Part shown: in pieces, positions 11,482 through 19,952 of the stretch
Position numbering within the stretch: the stretch's first letter is position 1
How the letters are laid out: the number at the start of each line of letters is the position of its first letter
Source: an uncultured Sphingobacteriales bacterium
GTDB lineage: Bacteria > Bacteroidota > Bacteroidia > CAILMK01 > CAYYUA01
NCBI GenBank assembly: GCA_964542585.1
Contig: CAZIUI010000002.1
Location: forward strand, 12,117-76,116
Direction: 5' to 3'
DNA length: 64,000 bases
The notes under the pieces: model-generated
Told to the model about the DNA's origin: nothing
Seen by the model: the letters and a program-made list of their open reading frames with translations, nothing else
Databases searched by the model: none
Made by a program: the position numbers and the translations under genes

Positions 11482-12963
11482 ATGCAACAGCTAACCATTC
11501 ATAATTCCCTTAGCCGACAAAAAGAAGTTTTTGAGCCCCTAAACTCACCTTATATTGGGATGTATGTTTGTGGACCCACGGTTTACGGAGATCCCCACCT
11601 TGGGCATGCCAAGTCTTATGTCTCATTTGATGTGATTTACCGGTACTTATTGCATTTGGGCTACAAAGTGCGGTATGTTCAGAACATTACGGATGTAGGC
11701 CACCTAACGGATGATTCAGATGAAGGTGAGGATAAGATCCAAAAGCAGTCCAAGGTTGAGCAGTTGGAGCCCATGGAAGTGGTGGAGTATTACATGAACA
11801 GTTATTTCCGCCATATGGATACCCTAAACCAAAAAAGACCTTCCATTACGCCACGCCCTAGCGGACATATACCTGAACAAGTTCAATACATTCAAAACCT
11901 GCTAGAACAGGGTTTTGCCTACGAAGTAAATGGCTCTATTTACTTTGATGTTACGGCCTATCAACAAAAAGGGCCCAACCATTACGGAAAGTTGAGTGGT
12001 AAAAAACCTGAAGATTTAGCAGAAGGGGCTGCTAATCGGGAATTAAGCGGCCAGTACCAAAAGAAAAGCCCGCTGGATTTTGCCCTTTGGAAGAAAGCCA
12101 CACCAGACCATCTGATGCAATGGCCCTCCCCATGGAGTCAAGGTTATCCCGGCTGGCATATCGAGTGTACGGCTATGAGCCAAAAATACCTGGGCAACCA
12201 GTTTGATATTCACGGTGGGGGTATGGAGAACATGTTTCCCCACCACGAATGCGAAATCGCCCAGGCTGAAGGGTTAGAAGAGGGTTCCTTTGCCCGTTAT
12301 TGGATGCATAACAACATGGTAACCGTCAACGGCCAGAAAATGGGTAAATCGCAAGGCAATAGCATCACCCTTTCTGAGTTATTTTCAGGCGATCACACTC
12401 TGCTTGAAAGAGCCTATCATCCCATGTCAGTCCGTTTTTTGATTCTTCAGTCTCATTACCGGAAGCCCCTTGATTTTTCTAACGAAGCGTTGGAATCCGC
12501 GCACAAAGGCTACCAACGTTTAGTTGAAAGTGTACAGCGTCTCCAAAACCTTACTCCTAGCAGTGAAAATTCTTCCTTTGACGTCAGCAACTGGATTCAG
12601 CGATGCTACAGCGCCATGAATGATGATTTCAACACGCCCATGCTCATTGCTGAGCTGTTTGAGGGATGTAATGCCATAAACCGCGCCTGGCAAGGGCAAG
12701 AACATTTAAATAGTGCTGATCTACAGGCCATGCAAAAAGCTTTTAGCGAGTTTGTAGAAGATATTCTGGGATTAACATTACAAGAAGAGGGAGAAGGATC
12801 CCGGAAGCACTTGAACGAGGTAATGGACCTTTTATTAGAATTGCGCCAAGAGGCTCGTCAGAAAAAGGATTTTCAAACAGCTGATAAAATCCGCGACCGC
12901 TTACAAGAACTGGGCTTTGAGATACGGGATTCCAAAGAAGGAACGGAATGGTCCATTGCTTAG
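11482..12963 (+). CDS. cysS: Cysteine--tRNA ligase
   Basis: It carries a HIGH-like HLGHAKSY motif, KMGKSQGN (the KMSKS motif), Zn-binding cysteines and the DALRYF-like anticodon-binding C-terminus. Confidence 0.92.
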   Translation: MQQLTIHNSLSRQKEVFEPLNSPYIGMYVCGPTVYGDPHLGHAKSYVSFDVIYRYLLHLGYKVRYVQNITDVGHLTDDSDEGEDKIQKQSKVEQLEPMEVVEYYMNSYFRHMDTLNQKRPSITPRPSGHIPEQVQYIQNLLEQGFAYEVNGSIYFDVTAYQQKGPNHYGKLSGKKPEDLAEGAANRELSGQYQKKSPLDFALWKKATPDHLMQWPSPWSQGYPGWHIECTAMSQKYLGNQFDIHGGGMENMFPHHECEIAQAEGLEEGSFARYWMHNNMVTVNGQKMGKSQGNSITLSELFSGDHTLLERAYHPMSVRFLILQSHYRKPLDFSNEALESAHKGYQRLVESVQRLQNLTPSSENSSFDVSNWIQRCYSAMNDDFNTPMLIAELFEGCNAINRAWQGQEHLNSADLQAMQKAFSEFVEDILGLTLQEEGEGSRKHLNEVMDLLLELRQEARQKKDFQTADKIRDRLQELGFEIRDSKEGTEWSIA

Positions 12964-13039: not shown

Positions 13040-14077
13040 ATGGATACCTATAACGATAATTTTTTAAGGGCTTGCCGGGGCGAGCCGGTAGATCATACAC
13101 CGGTATGGTTCATGCGGCAAGCTGGTCGTTACCAGGCTGAATACCGGGAGATCAAGGAGAACCGAACCATCTACGATATTATTCAAAATCCCGAATTATG
13201 CGCGTACGTCACAAAATTGCCCCTTCAGCAATTAGGAGTAGATGCAGCTATCCTCTTTTCTGACATCATGACGCCCATCGGGCCTATGGGATTGGAAAAT
13301 GAGATCAGACCTAATTATGGACCTTATGTCCCCAATCCAGTCAGGAGCCAAGCTGACGTCAACAACCTTACGGTACCCAACTACGAGCAAGCCACGCCTT
13401 ACGTAGGCGAAACCATTCAGCAAGTTATTAATGCTATCAATATTCCATTAATCGGGTTCTGCGGAGCACCTTTCACGCTAGCCAGCTACATGATAGAGGG
13501 GGGTAAAAGCAAGCATTACGAGCATACCAAAAGCTTGATGTATAACCAACCACAGGTATGGCATGAGCTCATGGAAAAGCTGGTGGATGGCATGCTGAAT
13601 TACCTGGATATGCAGGTTCAGGCTGGAGCAAATGCCGTCCAGATTTTTGATAGCTGGGTGGGGAACCTGAGCCAGCCAGACTATGCTACGTACATCTTTC
13701 CCCACATGGAGCGGCTCTTCAGGTCTCTTAAGTACCTGAATGTTCCTACGATACTTTTTGGCGTGAACACCCTCCACCTTTTAGGTCAGTTCAAAGAAAC
13801 CGGCTGCGATGTAGTAGGCGTTGATTGGCGCACCGATATTGGCGTAGCCTGGCAGATCATGGAGCATGAAGTAGCTATCATGGGTAACCTGGATCCCGTC
13901 TCCGTACTGGGGCCTGAGGAATTAATACAGGAAAAAGTTCAGCAGGTGCTGGATAGCATAGGAGAAGACCGGCAAAAAGGATTTATCTTTAACCTTGGTC
14001 ACGGGGTAATTCCTAGTTTGTCTCCCGAAAAATTGAAGTCAGTGGTTGATCACGTACACCGCACAACCAGCCGCTAA
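13040..14077 (+). CDS. hemE: Uroporphyrinogen decarboxylase
   Basis: The N-terminus NDNFLRACRGEPVDHTPVWFMRQAGRY matches the canonical HemE N-terminal motif. Confidence 0.92.
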   Translation: MDTYNDNFLRACRGEPVDHTPVWFMRQAGRYQAEYREIKENRTIYDIIQNPELCAYVTKLPLQQLGVDAAILFSDIMTPIGPMGLENEIRPNYGPYVPNPVRSQADVNNLTVPNYEQATPYVGETIQQVINAINIPLIGFCGAPFTLASYMIEGGKSKHYEHTKSLMYNQPQVWHELMEKLVDGMLNYLDMQVQAGANAVQIFDSWVGNLSQPDYATYIFPHMERLFRSLKYLNVPTILFGVNTLHLLGQFKETGCDVVGVDWRTDIGVAWQIMEHEVAIMGNLDPVSVLGPEELIQEKVQQVLDSIGEDRQKGFIFNLGHGVIPSLSPEKLKSVVDHVHRTTSR

Positions 14078-14201
14078 ATTCGTTGTTAATTAATTATTCC
14101 GAGTAGTAGTTTTTAATTAAAGTCATTTAATAGATCGTGTTTTTTAAAGATAATTATTCGCACCTGAAAGCACTTTTCGCAAAAATTAGAAAGCAGCATT
14201 T

Positions 14202-15131
14202 ATGAAAAAAGGAATTCTTTTACTGGCTTATGGGGGGCCGAACCGGCGCGAAGACATTGCCCCTTTTTACAGGGATATAAGGATGAGTTATGCGGGCGTT
14301 GAGCCAACGCAGGAAATGATCGATGAGCTCATTGAGGAGTATGACATGATCGGTGGTTATTCTCCGCTGCTGGAGATCACCCAGAATCAGGCTAACAGCC
14401 TGAAACAAGAGCTCAACAATGAATACCCGGTTTACATTGGAATGCGGCATTGGGAGCCCTGGATTCATGAGACCCTACAGCAGATGCAGCAGGATGGAAT
14501 TGAGGAAGCCGTCTGTATCATCATGGCTCCGCATTTCTCCCGCATGAGTGTCTGCAAGTATTATGAGCGGGTGAATGAAGCGCTTGAGTGGTTAAACTAT
14601 GACCTGAAGCTTCACCGCATTAAATCATGGCATACGCATCGTGAATATATCAAAGGCATGGCTGAGCGAGTCAAAGAGGGCCGACAGCAATTTCCAGAAG
14701 ATATTCCCAATGAAAATATCCATTACCTTTTTACTGCTCACAGCCTTCCGGCCAAGGTTTTAGAGTATTATGGCCCTTATCCAAAGCAGTTAAATGAGAC
14801 CAGCCAGCTATTAAGTGAGGAATTGGACCAGAGTAATTGGTCGTTCTGTTTTCAAAGTGCTGGCAAAAGCCGAATGCCTTGGCTAGGACCGGATATCCTT
14901 AGCCATCTTCACACCCTCGCTGATCAAGGACAGAATAAAGTTTTGGTGACATCCATTGGCTTCCTTGCAGACCACTTTGAGATTATAAATGACATCGATA
15001 TAGAGGCCAAACCCGAGGCTCATAAACTGAATATGGAGCTTGCGCGGTCTAAAACCCTGAATGACTCACCATACCTGGCCAGAACCCTGGCCGATATTGT
15101 ACAACAGCGGATGCCTGTTTATGCAGAATAG
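14202..15131 (+). CDS. hemH: Ferrochelatase
   Basis: The product is 309 aa with MKKGILLLAYGGP at the N-terminus and the ferrochelatase fold motifs. Confidence 0.85.
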   Translation: MKKGILLLAYGGPNRREDIAPFYRDIRMSYAGVEPTQEMIDELIEEYDMIGGYSPLLEITQNQANSLKQELNNEYPVYIGMRHWEPWIHETLQQMQQDGIEEAVCIIMAPHFSRMSVCKYYERVNEALEWLNYDLKLHRIKSWHTHREYIKGMAERVKEGRQQFPEDIPNENIHYLFTAHSLPAKVLEYYGPYPKQLNETSQLLSEELDQSNWSFCFQSAGKSRMPWLGPDILSHLHTLADQGQNKVLVTSIGFLADHFEIINDIDIEAKPEAHKLNMELARSKTLNDSPYLARTLADIVQQRMPVYAE

Positions 15132-16509
15132 CGAAGTTATTATCATTGGAGGTGGTATTACCGGGCTGACATCAGCCTGGTTACTAGAGGAAGCAGGTTA
15201 CACCAATGTAACAATCCTTGAAGCTTCCGATGAGTGGGGCGGGAAAATTAAAACTGATCGGGAAAATGGATTCCTTATTGAAACAGGGCCTGACGCGCTC
15301 ATGATCACCAAGCCAGGTGTCCTGGACTTTATCCGAAAACTTGATCTGGAAGAACAGCTCATAGAGCCTGCAAGCAGGCATTTTTACATCCTTCACAAAG
15401 GGAAACTGCAGGCTGTTCCGGCAGGATTTGCGTCAATGGTTCCGGCTGACCTTGGCGATTTCATGCGGTCTCCTATCCTTTCATGGCGTGGGAAAGCTCG
15501 CATGCTGGCGGAGCGTTTAATACGCCCGAGGGATCATGATAAAGATGAGAGCCTGGCTCAGTTCATTACACGCAGGTTCGGACGGGAAGTCTTAGACCAG
15601 CTAGCGGAACCGCTCTTCTCAGGTGTTTACTCGGCCCCTGCTGATGACTTGAGTATCAAAGCCACTTTTCCTCATTTTCACCGGATGGAAACGCAATATG
15701 GGAGTGTAACCAAGGCTGTTCTTCAGAATCGCAAGCAAAATGGGCCACCCGCTAGGTCACCCTTCCGCAGTTTTAAGGACGGGATGGACACCCTTCCCTG
15801 TGAGATTGTTAATCAATTAGCCCATACCCAGGTCCTTACGAATACACCGGTTAGTGAAATACAACAGGCCAAAAACGGCTACACGGTCAAAACAGTCAGT
15901 GCGAGATTTGAAGCTACGCAGGTAATCAGTACCATTCCTTCTTATCAATTAGCATCCGCCACCCGTAATATGGTACCGTTAGCTCAAAAGCCTTTAGAAG
16001 CAATTGACTTTGCCAGTTCAGCCATCGTTACGTTGGCTTATTCCCGATCAGCCGTCAGGAATGATCTCAACGCAACAGGCTTCCTTATTCCCAAGCCTGA
16101 GCAAACCGCGCTTTCTGCTTGTACCTGGAGCTCTGAGAAATGGCCTGGGCGTGCTCCAAACGGGTATGTAACCTTCCGGTGTTTTTTCAGCAATGTTGAT
16201 CCTTTGCTGATAAACCAGCGCTCTCATGAAGATTGGCAAGCGCTTGCAGATGAGGAGCTGAAAAAGATACTTAGCCTTTATGAGCAACCAATCAAAAGTT
16301 GGCTACATACCTGGAAGAACGCTCAGCCTCAGTACAAAATGCAACATTTAACCCATATTGAAGCCATTGAGCAAGCGCTTAAACCGTTTCCGGGTTTTCA
16401 TGTAGCAGGTAGCCCTTACCGGGGTGTGGGGATACCCGACTGCATCCGGCAGGCACAGGCCACCGTAAAACAGTTAATGGAAAAGGAACAAGAACCTGAT
16501 CAAGTTTAA
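15121..16509 (+). CDS. hemY: Protoporphyrinogen oxidase (FAD-dependent, HemY type)
   Basis: The N-terminal FAD-binding motif is VIIIGGGITGLTSAW, directly after the ATG at 15121. The ORF-track start at 15061 is an upstream in-frame extension that overlaps hemH. The 11-nt overlap of the stop and start codons suggests translational coupling. Confidence 0.85.
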   Translation: MQNSEVIIIGGGITGLTSAWLLEEAGYTNVTILEASDEWGGKIKTDRENGFLIETGPDALMITKPGVLDFIRKLDLEEQLIEPASRHFYILHKGKLQAVPAGFASMVPADLGDFMRSPILSWRGKARMLAERLIRPRDHDKDESLAQFITRRFGREVLDQLAEPLFSGVYSAPADDLSIKATFPHFHRMETQYGSVTKAVLQNRKQNGPPARSPFRSFKDGMDTLPCEIVNQLAHTQVLTNTPVSEIQQAKNGYTVKTVSARFEATQVISTIPSYQLASATRNMVPLAQKPLEAIDFASSAIVTLAYSRSAVRNDLNATGFLIPKPEQTALSACTWSSEKWPGRAPNGYVTFRCFFSNVDPLLINQRSHEDWQALADEELKKILSLYEQPIKSWLHTWKNAQPQYKMQHLTHIEAIEQALKPFPGFHVAGSPYRGVGIPDCIRQAQATVKQLMEKEQEPDQV

Positions 16510-16550
16510 TACCCTTTTCAGACCAATTTTATAATTTTGTAAAGGCTTTA

Positions 16551-16622
16551 GGGGCGCCTGTAACAGCAGGCTGAGAGGTAACCCTTGGAACCTGACACCG
16601 TTAGCACGGACGCAGGGAAAAG
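16551..16622 (+). promoter_or_regulatory. TPP (thiamine pyrophosphate) riboswitch aptamer 1 (THI-box)
   Basis: GGGGCGCCtgtaacagcaGGCTGAGAggtaACCCTTgGAACCTGAcacCGTTAGCACGGaCGCAGGGA matches the THI-element consensus (CTGAGA...ACCCTTTGAACCTGATC.GGTTAATACC.GCGTAGGGA). Confidence 0.85.
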
Positions 16623-16662
16623 CTGCTTAGGCTATTCAAGTGTAAGCTGCTACCATTTTTTT
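16621..16662 (+). terminator. Intrinsic terminator, the candidate expression platform of riboswitch 1
   Basis: The stem AGCTGCTTA / TAAGCTGCT is 9 bp with one T-T mismatch and a 13-nt loop, followed by ACCATTTTTTT (seven T). Confidence 0.55.
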
Positions 16663-16694
16663 CTCTCTCATTTTCCTCTAAACGCCATCTCAAA

Positions 16695-16775
16695 GGGGTG
16701 GGGTCTTTTTTAGAAAGACCTCTGAGAACAGACCCGTAGAACCTGACACTGGTAATGCAGGCGCAGGGATCGAGC
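16695..16775 (+). promoter_or_regulatory. TPP riboswitch aptamer 2 (THI-box), in tandem with aptamer 1
   Basis: GGGGTGGGGTCttttttagaaaGACCTCTGAGAacagACCCgtaGAACCTGAcacTGGTAATGCaGGCGCAGGGA matches the same consensus. Confidence 0.8.
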
Positions 16776-16850
16776 AACTGGTAATTTTTTATGCAGTGGA
16801 ATCCGACCCCTTGATTCCGCCGAATTGTGGAATCAAAGACTGCTAAAAGT

Positions 16851-19298
16851 ATGCGTTTCTTTTTGATTACCTTAATCCTCCTTATCACTGTTCCATTTGC
16901 ATCTAGGGCACAGCACACCATTTCCGGAACCGTTAGGGAGCAAGCTTCTGAACAAAGCCTAAAAGGCGCTAATGTCCGCTTAAAGCCGGGTTACCAAGGA
17001 GCTGTTACCCGAAAGGATGGTAGCTTCAAGCTATCCGGACTGGATAAAGGTTCCAGAACGCTGATTGTAACATATCTTGGCTACCAGCCTGATACGCTCA
17101 ACCTGAACCTCGACAGCGATAAGACTTTAAACATCAGGCTTCAAAAGCGGACATACCAGGAAGATGAGGTACTTGTACAAAGTACAAGGGCTGATCGGGG
17201 CACCCCGACTACTTATACCAACGTGGAGAAGGAAATCATTCAAGAAGAGAACACCGGTCGGAACATGCCAGCGCTTCTGGCCAATCAACCCTCTGTAGTC
17301 AGCTCCTCCAATGGCGGAATGGACATTGGTTATACGGACATGCGTATCAGAGGTGTATCTCAGAGCCGGGTTAATGTTACCGTTAATGGGATCCCGTTGA
17401 ATGATGCCGAATCCCAAGGCGTTTTCTGGGTCAATATCCCCGATATAGCTGCTTCTTCAGAAAGTATCCAAATTCAGCGGGGGGTAGGCACTTCTACTAA
17501 TGGTGCCGCAGCATTTGGCGCCACAGTCAACCTGGAAACCAGCGGTTTCAATAAAGAACCTTTTGTTGAGGTCAATAACAGTTTTGGTTCTTTCAGCAGT
17601 ATGCGTAACAATGTTCGTTTTGGCACTGGCCTATTGGATAATAACTGGAGTTTCCAGGGAAGTTTCTCGCGCATCGAATCAGATGGCTACATTGACCGCG
17701 CTACTTCGGATCTCAAGTCTTATTACCTCAGCGGTGGTTACTATGGGGAAAAATCAATCCTCAAAGCCATTGTTTTTGGCGGCAGAGAAGAAACCTACCA
17801 GGCCTGGTATGGTGTACCCGAAAGGAAAATGGGGCAATTTGCCAATGGCCAACAATACCTCGGAGACCTGGCTAAGCCTGTTCAAGGGCTCTTTGGCAAT
17901 GATCCGACTATAAATAAAGGCGATCGAACCTATAACTTTTACGATTACGAAAACCAGGTGGATGACTATGGGCAAGACCATTACCAGCTACACCTTTCTC
18001 ATGAGTTTAGTGAAGTCATCACTGCGAATGCTGCATTGCATTACACTTATGGGCGAGGTTTCTTTGAACAATTCCGCGAACAAGCTTCCCTCCAACGTCA
18101 CCAGATCCAACCCGTAAGGCTTGGAGATTCAACGATAAGCACTTCAGACCTTGTGCGAAGGCGGTGGCTGGATAACCATTTTTATGGCGGCACCTTTTCC
18201 ATCAACTATGACAACAACAAACGCTTAAATGCCGTCATTGGAGGAGCCTGGAACCAGTATGAAGGTGACCACTTTGGGAAATTACGGTGGGTTCGCTTTG
18301 CCGGTAACAGCGAAATTGGTGATAAATTTTATGACAACACCGGGAAGAAACGGGATTTCAACATTTATGGGAAGGTCAATTACCAACTAACCACTTCCCT
18401 TTCAGGCTTTGTGGACCTGCAATACCGGGGTGTCCATTATGACGTTGATGGGATGGATCTTGGCCAAAAATCCTTGTATGTGACCGATAATCTGGGCTTC
18501 TTCAACCCCAAAGTAGGACTGGATTACCGCTACAACAGCCGTAACAGCTTTTACGTCTTTTTTGGTATGGGTAACCGGGAACCCACTCGGAATGATTACA
18601 TCGATGCATCGCAGGGGCAATCTCCTCAGCATGAAAGTCTTTATAACGGAGAAGCCGGCTACCAGTATCAGGATAACACCAAGCGCCTAAAGGTCAACGC
18701 CTACTACATGCGTTATCGCAATCAATTAGTCAATACAGGTGAGGTGAATGATGTGGGCGCTAACATCCGAACGAACGTGGACCATAGCTACCGGGCTGGT
18801 TTGGAATTCATAGGCGCTATTCAGCTCGGTAAGCAATGGCAATGGCAAGGCAATGCCACCTTTAGCCGGAATCGAATCTTGAACACTGATTACAAAGTGG
18901 ATGGTGAGCTTGAAAAAAGTTTCGAGTCCACACCTATTGCTTTTTCGCCATCTGTGATAGCAGCGAGCCAATTCCGGTTTCAGCCTTTTAAAGGATTTGA
19001 AGCATCCCTCCAAAGTAAATACGTAGGGGAGCAGTATTTAGACAACACCGGGTCTGAAAGCCGAAAAATCCAGGATTACCTGCTTAACAACCTTCGCCTG
19101 TCCTATACGCTCAATCAATGGGCTGTTTTCGATCAGGTTAAGGCTCAGCTAGATGTGAATAACCTGCTAAACGTTCGGTACGCCAATGATGGTTACACTT
19201 TTGCGGCCCGCGCAGAATCGGGTGAGGTCAATAACTTCAACTTCTTTTATCCACAGGCAGGAAGGAACTTCATGGCATCTCTAAAACTGGGCTTTTAA
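16851..19298 (+). CDS. TonB-dependent outer-membrane receptor, probably a thiamine-related substrate receptor
   Basis: A signal peptide MRFFLITLILLITVPFASRAQ is followed by a carboxypeptidase-regulatory-like domain (ISGTVRE...GANVRL), a plug domain and a 22-strand barrel ending in an aromatic residue (...LKLGF). The ORF-track start at 16827 uses GTG; the ATG at 16851 gives a clean signal peptide. The TPP riboswitches lie upstream. Confidence 0.85.
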   Translation: MRFFLITLILLITVPFASRAQHTISGTVREQASEQSLKGANVRLKPGYQGAVTRKDGSFKLSGLDKGSRTLIVTYLGYQPDTLNLNLDSDKTLNIRLQKRTYQEDEVLVQSTRADRGTPTTYTNVEKEIIQEENTGRNMPALLANQPSVVSSSNGGMDIGYTDMRIRGVSQSRVNVTVNGIPLNDAESQGVFWVNIPDIAASSESIQIQRGVGTSTNGAAAFGATVNLETSGFNKEPFVEVNNSFGSFSSMRNNVRFGTGLLDNNWSFQGSFSRIESDGYIDRATSDLKSYYLSGGYYGEKSILKAIVFGGREETYQAWYGVPERKMGQFANGQQYLGDLAKPVQGLFGNDPTINKGDRTYNFYDYENQVDDYGQDHYQLHLSHEFSEVITANAALHYTYGRGFFEQFREQASLQRHQIQPVRLGDSTISTSDLVRRRWLDNHFYGGTFSINYDNNKRLNAVIGGAWNQYEGDHFGKLRWVRFAGNSEIGDKFYDNTGKKRDFNIYGKVNYQLTTSLSGFVDLQYRGVHYDVDGMDLGQKSLYVTDNLGFFNPKVGLDYRYNSRNSFYVFFGMGNREPTRNDYIDASQGQSPQHESLYNGEAGYQYQDNTKRLKVNAYYMRYRNQLVNTGEVNDVGANIRTNVDHSYRAGLEFIGAIQLGKQWQWQGNATFSRNRILNTDYKVDGELEKSFESTPIAFSPSVIAASQFRFQPFKGFEASLQSKYVGEQYLDNTGSESRKIQDYLLNNLRLSYTLNQWAVFDQVKAQLDVNNLLNVRYANDGYTFAARAESGEVNNFNFFYPQAGRNFMASLKLGF

Positions 19299-19349: not shown

Positions 19350-19952
19350 TTACATGGAGCGATACCAACGGTAGATGCCAATAAATGAAAAGACCACATA
19401 AAGCCCGTATAGCATTGTCATCAAGAAAAAATCTTTGTCAAAGTATATGACGGTATAGAATGTATCCACAACCATCCAAACCACCCAGTTTTCGAGTTTT
19501 TTACGGGCTAACATCCATGTACCAACCAGGCTGAAGGCTGTGGTGGCAGCATCCCAGTAAGGAATAGCCATAGCTGTATAGCTGCTTAAGACATACCCGA
19601 TCAAGACGGTGCCGAAAATCCCTAAAATTAGCAAAACCAGCCATAAGTTCAGGGAAGTGAATGTAACTTTTAAAACTGTTTCCTTGCTACCACCATATCG
19701 CCATTGGTACCAACCGTAAAAACTAAGAAGTATGTAAACGAACTGAAGGGGAATTTCCCCATACAGAGAAGCCTGGTAGTTAATCACGATAAAAAGCACC
19801 AATCCCACGAGGCTTAAGCCCCAGGCTATGGCTTTTTGCTTTGTAGCGAAATACACGTACAATACTAGTGAAACAAAGGCCACATATTCAATAACACTTG
19901 TTTGTTGGAGCTCTTTAAGTATAGTCTCAAAGAGTGCTGCCATAAGTAACAT
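19350..19952 (-). CDS. pnuC: PnuC-family transporter (nicotinamide riboside / PnuT-like thiamine transporter family)
   Basis: The 200-aa product has 7-8 TM helices. Motifs GWYQWRYGG, ...VWMVVDTFYTVIYFDKD... and a C-terminal YRWY are characteristic of PnuC. Confidence 0.75.
   Translation of the reverse strand: MLLMAALFETILKELQQTSVIEYVAFVSLVLYVYFATKQKAIAWGLSLVGLVLFIVINYQASLYGEIPLQFVYILLSFYGWYQWRYGGSKETVLKVTFTSLNLWLVLLILGIFGTVLIGYVLSSYTAMAIPYWDAATTAFSLVGTWMLARKKLENWVVWMVVDTFYTVIYFDKDFFLMTMLYGLYVVFSFIGIYRWYRSM

Follow-up and report, generated by a model that had tools for sequence, protein, structure and literature searches.

Tandem thiamin pyrophosphate riboswitch aptamers upstream of the gene for an Omr1/OMthi-type TonB-dependent receptor in an uncultured Sphingobacteriales bacterium

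The receptor leader and its two aptamers

In a stretch of 64,000 nucleotides (the window) from an uncultured Sphingobacteriales bacterium, contig CAZIUI010000002.1, a gene for a TonB-dependent outer-membrane receptor is preceded by two complete thiamin pyrophosphate (TPP) riboswitch aptamers, which are referred to here as aptamer 1 (distal) and aptamer 2 (proximal). The features of the locus are listed in Table 1. An initial annotation, made from the sequence letters, had already placed two full TPP aptamers ahead of such a receptor gene. The assignment of the gene is borne out by three Pfam domains (CarbopepD_reg_2, Plug and TonB_dep_Rec_b-barrel) and by a protein of Fulvivirga imtechensis which is 50% identical to the receptor and is named by its source "Thiamin-regulated outer membrane receptor Omr1". 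The receptor matched no specific NCBIfam model.

Table 1. Features of the tandem TPP riboswitch locus, in window positions.
Feature	Position	Strand	Description
Haem biosynthesis cluster	13040-16509	+	uroporphyrinogen decarboxylase, ferrochelatase, protoporphyrinogen-oxidase-like; directly upstream of the riboswitch promoter
Promoter box TAATTTTG (TAnnTTTG)	16532-16539	+	Bacteroidota-type -7 box, 5 nucleotides 5' of aptamer 1 P1
TPP aptamer 1 (distal)	16544-16624	+	P1 GGCUUU/AAAGCU; RF00059 and R1 scores, invariant core, covarying stems
Hairpin H1	16621-16651	+	-12.4 kcal/mol; 5' arm overlaps the 3' strand of aptamer 1 P1
T7 run	16656-16662	+	terminator tail of the initial annotation; possibly a pause site only
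AA1 CCUCUAAACGCC	16675-16686	+	complementary to the aptamer 1 5' P1/P2 strand GGCUUUAGGGG (16544-54)
T1 hairpin ACGCCAUCUC/GGGGUGGGGU, then C and U6	16682-16711	+	candidate terminator or anti-fold of aptamer 2; -10.4 kcal/mol
TPP aptamer 2 (proximal)	16689-16774	+	P1 CUCAA/UCGAG with one A.C mismatch; RF00059 and R1 scores, invariant core, covarying stems
Element a (GGAAUC)	16798-16803	+	invariant GGAATC in 7 loci; could pair with GAUUCC (16813-18)
AA2 CCCCUUGA	16807-16814	+	complementary to the aptamer 2 P1/P2 5' strand UCAAAGGGG (16690-98)
c:d hairpin UUGAUUCC/GGAAUCAA	16811-16836	+	ends 15 nucleotides before AUG; candidate sequestor of the translation initiation region
Omr1/OMthi-type TonB-dependent receptor gene	16851-19298	+	815 amino acids, start codon ATG; regulated gene
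PnuC-family transporter gene	19350-19952	-	89.8 bits (NCBIfam TIGR01528); convergent with the receptor gene, without a riboswitch of its own

Aptamers were called by an Rfam cmscan of the whole window at gathering thresholds, the gathering score of the TPP family RF00059 being 54.3 bits. The scan returned five matches, namely three tRNAs and the two TPP aptamers, both of the latter on the + strand and above the gathering score. Aptamer 1 was matched at 16540-16635 with 65.4 bits (E 1.4e-10) and aptamer 2 at 16684-16786 with 56.2 bits (E 2.5e-08), each over model positions 1-105; a clade-specific covariance model, termed R1, scored them at 83.1 and 77.2 bits, respectively. The two RF00059 matches expected from the initial annotation were therefore obtained, with neither aptamer below the threshold and with the pyrimidine pocket present in both.

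The CUGAGA motif constitutes the pyrimidine pocket of the TPP riboswitch, and the internal loop CCUGA / CG.AGGGA constitutes its pyrophosphate pocket. Reading of the sequence locates CTGAGA at 16571-76 in aptamer 1 and at 16722-27 in aptamer 2, ACCC at 16581-84 and 16732-35, ACCTGA at 16590-95 and 16741-46, and CG plus CAGGGA at 16611-18 and 16762-69. The pyrophosphate-sensor internal loop P4/P5 (ACCUGAC / CGCAGGGA) is present in both. Judged from these motifs both ligand pockets are intact in each aptamer, and both elements are complete TPP aptamers. The cores had been described in the initial annotation in one common wording, which holds for CTGAGA and does not hold for the other two: aptamer 1 has ACCCTTGGAACCTGA as its second core and aptamer 2 has ACCCGTAGAACCTGA, and the third reads ACGCAGGGA in aptamer 1, GCGCAGGGA being found in aptamer 2 only. 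In addition, ACTGGTAAT of aptamer 2 P5 (16757-16765) is repeated directly 3' of P1 (16777-16785).

The aptamers had further been described as lying about 70 nucleotides apart in one leader; the shared leader stands, and the gap from the end of aptamer 1 P1 (16624) to the start of aptamer 2 P1 (16689) is 64 nucleotides. A single copy of the motif TAnnTTTG, which we take to be the -7 promoter consensus of Bacteroides, is found just 5' of aptamer 1 (TAATTTTG), and it is the sole copy between the flanking ones at 12188 and 22874. None occurs between 16540 and 16851 and hence none between the aptamers, where no plausible open reading frame was found either. The same box at the same distance is present in four orthologous loci (L001, L092, L093 and L094) and in the second tandem clade, both described below. 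Because a promoter box is found immediately 5' of aptamer 1 and none between the aptamers, both most likely belong to one 5' leader that starts at about 16544. In the window as a whole TAnnTTTG is strongly depleted, with 38 copies compared to 69 +/- 8 expected from shuffles. This would fit with spurious promoters of the Bacteroidota type being selected against.

Conservation of the tandem layout and selection on the aptamers

Orthologous receptor loci were gathered by scanning genome contigs and metagenome contigs and by a protein search with contig look-ups, and were surveyed for aptamers with permissive Rfam scans and with R1. The R1 search gave 103 matches over 100 sources, nearly all of them directly upstream of the receptor gene. 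Tandem aptamers occur in L001, L092 and L093, whose receptors are 73-79% identical to that of the window, in L002, L094 and L095 (59-61%), and in L097 and L098 (54%); L096 is a truncated copy of L097 and was set apart from these eight further tandem loci. In the range of 73-100% receptor identity the survey retrieved four lineages. A second, distant tandem group comprises L053, L076, L080 and L088 with receptors 42-43% identical to that of the window, and L076 has both of its aptamers above the Rfam gathering score. Approximately 80 other orthologues mostly possess one aptamer near the start codon, and among the metagenome loci, which were not chosen for closeness to the window, four out of 80 are tandem. 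The tandem arrangement pointed out in the initial annotation is therefore not confined to the window, being conserved in eight further loci and recurrent in a second clade of four.

Seventeen aptamers of the window clade were tabulated. CUGAGA (junction J3/2, 17 out of 17), ACCC, ACCUG and CG.AGGGA are invariant among them, in the distal and the proximal aptamers alike, and P3 and P5 vary freely in sequence and in length. For the covariation analysis 16 of these 17 aptamers from nine tandem loci were aligned over 23 pairs and compared to 500 shuffles and to slid registers. The TPP three-way-junction structure (P1-P5) gave 88.5% standard pairs, and 12 of the 23 pairs are changed on both sides. 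None of the 500 shuffles reached the observed covariation score and every slid register scored lower. This pattern of paired changes supports the TPP fold.

The conservation also bears on the idea that regulation is due to the proximal riboswitch alone, aptamer 1 being a duplicate without function or in decay. In favor of this one may note that no clade-wide expression platform is definable for aptamer 1. Against it, aptamer 1 outscores aptamer 2, and its core and compensatory stem changes are retained down to 54% receptor identity; in L002 and L097 its P3 has taken up insertions of 65-70 nucleotides while the core remained intact. Because the core was kept even with such insertions, decay of a duplicate is a very unlikely origin of aptamer 1, and we regard the corresponding regulatory model as close to negligible. 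The tandem element is genuine and conserved, and it is very probably functional.

P3 insertions of 65-130 nucleotides in otherwise intact aptamers were observed in aptamer 2 of L001 (3735-3866) and L092 (2776-2905) and in aptamer 1 of L097 (2532-2610) and L002 (41-113). In L001, L092 and L097 the insertions have similar ends that are complementary to each other (GGGGCRTGKATCAAA ... TTTGATMCAYCCCC), which points to a small element, mobile or palindromic, that P3 tolerates. The L001/L092 insertion carries a T6 run of its own. A different addition is found in the proximal aptamer of L098 (970-1000) and L099 (approximately 320-350), where an extra hairpin of about 20-26 nucleotides (CCUUCC...GGGAGG) sits between ACCC and ACCUG (J2/4) and lowers the Rfam score of this aptamer to 35-44 bits.

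A variant of the distal aptamer is found in the second clade (L076 2180-2275, L053 851-935, L080 2174-2258, L088 2173-2258). It passes the Rfam threshold with 57.3 bits and yet is without the pyrophosphate pocket: the A that follows CCUG is missing and A stands in place of CG, which turns P4-P5 into an almost uninterrupted helix. The proximal partner of this variant is canonical. The variant could be a thiamin- or precursor-sensing element in a two-ligand gate. For the window this raises the question of whether its aptamers, too, sense different thiamin-related ligands, i.e. TPP on the one hand and thiamin, thiamin monophosphate (TMP) or a precursor on the other, and act as a two-input gate. 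Besides the collapsed pocket in the second clade, such a gate would agree with the report that thiamin or TMP is the preferred ligand of some RNAs assigned to the TPP riboswitch class and that tandem pairs may sense two ligands (PMC9481103). The window clade, however, keeps CCUGA(C/U), CG.AGGGA and CUGAGA in both aptamers, and no systematic substitution separates aptamer 1 from aptamer 2. A two-ligand gate is therefore highly improbable for the window.

Candidate expression platforms

We favor, with moderate confidence, the interpretation that two complete TPP units lie in series on one transcript and that the gene would be expressed only while both are unliganded. Such a series arrangement would lead to a more sensitive and steeper shut-off than a single switch.

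The platform of the proximal unit is conserved in seven loci as GGAATC-N3-CCCCTTGRTTCC-N10-GTGGAAYCAAA. RNAalifold applied to these loci yields an 8-bp hairpin (16811-18 with 16829-36, termed c:d), in which one pair covaries as G-C/A-U/G-U. The 5' arm of this hairpin is overlapped by CCCCUUGA, the strand AA2, which is complementary to aptamer 2. AA2-type complementarity was compared to shuffled platforms in 64 loci and gave a mean z of -1.55, with 48% of the loci at p<=0.05. Furthermore, the partner strands in aptamer and platform covary between loci (CAAUGGGG:CCUCAUUG, AAUAGGGG:CCUCUAUU, UAACUGGGG:CCUCGGUUG and UUAAAGGGGUG:CACUCCUUUAA). Pairing of element a with GAUUCC could provide an alternative to the c:d hairpin. 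Many single-aptamer orthologues possess a hairpin in the equivalent position, e.g. UUGGUUA/UAACCAA, and because they show the same order of elements we infer that the proximal unit is the ancestral switch, which occurs as a single copy in orthologues.

This organization points to a platform that probably acts on translation. Without TPP, CCCCUUGA would pair with UCAAAGGGG of aptamer 2. With TPP bound, the G-rich strand would be locked in P1/P2 and the C-rich CCCCUUGA would be freed, and the 3' part of the latter could complete the c:d hairpin beside the AUG, thereby shortening the unstructured region 5' of the AUG. The closed hairpin is expected to reduce ribosome access, i.e. to turn translation off. 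This is in agreement with the report on the OMthi TPP riboswitch of B. thetaiotaomicron, where translation is controlled and the mRNA level is unchanged (bioRxiv 10.1101/867226). A short helix GCAGU/ACUGC (16793-97 with 16839-43) can in addition bracket the platform beside the AUG; it comprises 7-9 bp in L001, L092 and L093, with a change of U-A to U-G, and may represent an additional sequestor in the close clade only.

For the distal unit a corresponding strand, AA1, is found in the linker between the aptamers. It forms a conserved block in an alignment of seven otherwise poorly alignable linkers (consensus TTTTCCTCTA-TAGCCA), and its duplex with GGCUUUAGGGG amounts to -15.0 kcal/mol. Pairing of AA1 with its own aptamer is favored over pairing with aptamer 2 by 9.1 kcal/mol in the window and by a mean of 3.95 kcal/mol over 12 loci, the preference being present in nine of them. 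The aptamer strand of L080 contains one additional G (GGGGG), and the block there has one additional, matching C (CCCCC). Pairing of the aptamer 1 5' strand with the linker is found in the minimum free energy (MFE) structures of 11 out of 12 tandem leaders, and AA1 is paired in the unconstrained MFE structure of the window. Compared to shuffled-linker controls, the MFE of the tandem leaders gave z-scores from -0.9 to -8.1, with -2.4 or lower in 8 out of 12 and -5.4 for the window. Each aptamer therefore probably has an anti-aptamer strand of its own, as far as block conservation and folding indicate, which points to duplication of a whole unit of aptamer plus switching strand as the origin of the tandem. 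A second anti-aptamer segment, a CU tract facing GAGA(A/G)G of J3/2, seemed to covary on visual inspection of L001, L094 and L095 and was dropped, its cognate pairing of -8.8 kcal/mol standing against -7.8 kcal/mol for the non-cognate one.

The initial annotation had offered a different distal platform, a 9-bp hairpin with a T7 run directly after aptamer 1 that would terminate transcription. Hairpin (H1) and T run are both real, the latter starting four nucleotides (ACCA) past the stem rather than directly after it. The 9-bp part corresponds to AGCTGCTTA/TAAGCTGCT with a T.T mismatch, and inward extension leads to 11 pairs with two mismatches. Together they would make aptamer 1 a transcriptional OFF switch by means of a TPP-induced terminator, with riboswitch 2 acting independently downstream. 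The stability of H1, the T7 run that follows, and the precedent of the characterized tandem TPP riboswitches of B. anthracis, each of which uses its own terminator (PMC9481103), speak for this model. A hairpin overlapping the P1 3' strand is also present at the same position in L001, L092, L093, L002 and L094. However, in the closest relatives L001, L092 and L093 the hairpin persists while the T run is missing, the four-nucleotide spacer intervenes in the window, the terminator scan of the region did not call H1 plus T7, and there is no antiterminator partner upstream of the T run. Moreover, the 5' arm of H1 shares AGC (16621-23) with the P1 3' strand, and in L092 and L093 all of AAAGC, so that P1 stabilized by TPP would weaken H1; this is the wrong polarity for an OFF switch and predicts an ON switch. 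On these grounds H1 plus T7 is not supported as a TPP-induced terminator, and we consider the corresponding model quite improbable.

Returning to two units in series, a second hairpin (T1) offers a candidate output for the distal aptamer. Its 5' arm ACGCCAUCUC (16682-91) is made up of the last part of AA1 and the 5' strand of aptamer 2 P1, and its 3' arm GGGGUGGGGU (16695-16704) covers the P2/P3 5' strands of aptamer 2, so that T1 is incompatible with the AA1 helix as well as with native folding of aptamer 2. The T1 core at 16685-16701 is the only terminator-like site in 16300-17000 according to the terminator scan. Hairpin and U6 are also found in L093, L092 possesses the hairpin without the U run, and a hairpin of -10 kcal/mol or lower at this position occurs in only 2 out of 54 single-aptamer loci. 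In the proposed sequence of events, the 5' strand of aptamer 1 would pair with the linker block AA1 in the absence of TPP while H1 holds the P1 3' strand. TPP binding would release the block. In the least certain step, which would apply to this sublineage, the freed AA1 could join the P1 5' strand of aptamer 2 in forming the hairpin 16682-16704, followed by U6. Transcription might then terminate inside aptamer 2; or, by another route, the 5' strand of aptamer 2 would be blocked, CCCCUUGA would stay free and the sequestor hairpin would form. Both routes would turn expression off. The two riboswitches would then be interlocked, with a distal aptamer that has no platform of its own and acts through aptamer 2 in a sublineage-specific manner; we put this forward as a tentative and rather doubtful proposal. 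None of the tandem riboswitch papers examined describes a relay of this kind, in which the second of two same-class aptamers harbors a terminator.

Several results weigh against the proposed mechanism. Constrained folding was carried out for eight tandem leaders in four states (apo/apo, holo1, holo2 and holo12). The mean unpaired probability of the initiation region changed little and inconsistently between apo and holo, and the c:d hairpin was predicted in every state. The AA1 duplex is not significant compared to dinucleotide shuffles of the C/U-rich linker in seven out of eight loci, the exception being L002. The one site found by the terminator scan compares to 1.0 expected by chance. L001 is without the T1 hairpin, and the 54-61% clade as well as the second clade show neither the hairpin nor the U run. 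T1 forms in apo and in holo truncated folds alike. No canonical intrinsic terminator for the distal aptamer is conserved across the clade. The truncated folds speak against T1 as a strictly TPP-controlled terminator, and any control by T1 would have to be kinetic. Since the test on duplex energy was not significant, AA1 was graded on block conservation, cognate preference and whole-fold z-scores. One must also keep in mind that nearest-neighbour thermodynamics failed to reproduce even the proximal switch, which is supported by covariation, and was consequently not used as evidence either way.

An alternative comparable to the T1 mechanism is that aptamer 1 could act through Rho-dependent termination or RNase attack, with TPP freeing about 40 nucleotides of unstructured linker (16652-16692). 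This would require no intrinsic terminator and fits the absence of a conserved one. The linkers are C-rich and G-poor, with C:G counts over the whole linker of 17:8 in the window, 21:10 in L001 and 19:8 in L093, and 16652-16692 holds a single G. For E. coli, the discussion in bioRxiv 10.1101/867226 cites documented Rho-coupled control by a TPP riboswitch. On the other hand, pairing with a G-rich aptamer strand demands C/U richness as well, the second-clade linkers appear on reading (uncounted) to be A/U-rich with no obvious excess of C over G, and the tract is shorter than rut sites typically are. We therefore regard exposure of the linker as an unlikely, though conceivable, explanation.

Gene neighbourhood, known systems and meaning

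The haem biosynthesis cluster upstream of the promoter is found in identical gene order in L092. In the window its ferrochelatase reading frame (14202-15131) overlaps the longest oxidase reading frame (15061-16509) by about 70 nucleotides, and the oxidase start may be located further downstream. On the other side of the receptor gene lies the convergent PnuC-family gene, 24 nucleotides downstream of a gene for a hybrid histidine kinase of 1129 amino acids (19976-23365). L092 shows the convergent receptor/PnuC pair as well, without the kinase. The PnuC-family protein may be an inner-membrane thiamin transporter of the PnuT type, which would escape TPP control.

Tandem TPP riboswitches have been known since 2004-2007, and the pair of B. 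anthracis tenA represents two independent terminators with a more digital response (PMC2258182; PMC9481103). The initial annotation had called such tandems rare. This agrees with a share of less than 1% of TPP leaders (PMC2258182); they are nevertheless well documented, with 213 tandem TPP representatives counted by Sherlock et al. 2022 (PMC9481103). The view that independent units lead to a steeper response is also published (PMC9481103, PMC2258182) and is not new here. The statement of the initial annotation that TPP regulation of an outer-membrane receptor is established in Bacteroidota agrees with the literature, as TPP control of outer-membrane thiamin receptors is established in Bacteroidetes (PMC5613172; bioRxiv 10.1101/867226).

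The locus shares with B. anthracis tenA (Welz & Breaker 2007) and the 213 catalogued tandems the presence of two complete aptamers of the same class in one thiamin-related leader, and the expectation of a two-step OFF decision with a steeper response. The characterized tandems are found in biosynthesis or salvage operons of Bacillota, whereas the present one belongs to an outer-membrane receptor of Sphingobacteriales-like Bacteroidota. They possess an intrinsic terminator for each aptamer, whereas here the proximal unit looks translational and the distal unit is without a conserved canonical terminator, its candidate platform overlapping aptamer 2. With the single OMthi/Omr1 riboswitch (Costliow & Degnan 2017, PMC5613172; bioRxiv 10.1101/867226) the locus has in common the receptor family and the ligand class, and most of the single-aptamer orthologues collected show the same closeness of the aptamer to the start codon and the same platform of anti-aptamer strand and hairpin. 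In contrast to these leaders with one aptamer, a second complete aptamer with a probable anti-aptamer strand of its own has been added upstream. The bi-mechanism or pseudo-cooperative tandems (PMC9481103) likewise have identical ligands in series, possibly with one transcriptional and one translational unit; if T1 is used, the units described here would be physically interlocked and not independent.

Neither Bacteroidota nor TonB is mentioned in the main text, as distinct from the full case lists, of the surveys PMC9481103 and PMC12452182, and the word "tandem" is absent from the Bacteroides riboswitch preprint (bioRxiv 10.1101/867226). A full-text search for the combination of tandem TPP riboswitches with this gene and phylum context returned nothing, while a prior listing among the published cases is possible. 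The locus is a new example of the known tandem TPP arrangement in a new gene and phylum context.

The finding extends tandem TPP riboswitches from biosynthesis operons of Bacillota to outer-membrane thiamin receptors of environmental Bacteroidota, with an arrangement that selection has maintained in one clade and that is seen again in a second, distant clade. It provides a natural case for how a distal riboswitch could act in a phylum without Shine-Dalgarno-led initiation when no canonical terminator is available. The variant aptamer of the second clade, together with its canonical partner, is relevant to whether two different thiamin vitamers are sensed by some of the pairs classed as "tandem TPP". 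In the case of the window we report a solid finding and an incremental addition to known biology, since a tandem TPP riboswitch as such will not surprise the specialist; the architecture and the second-clade variant aptamer represent reasonable experimental leads.

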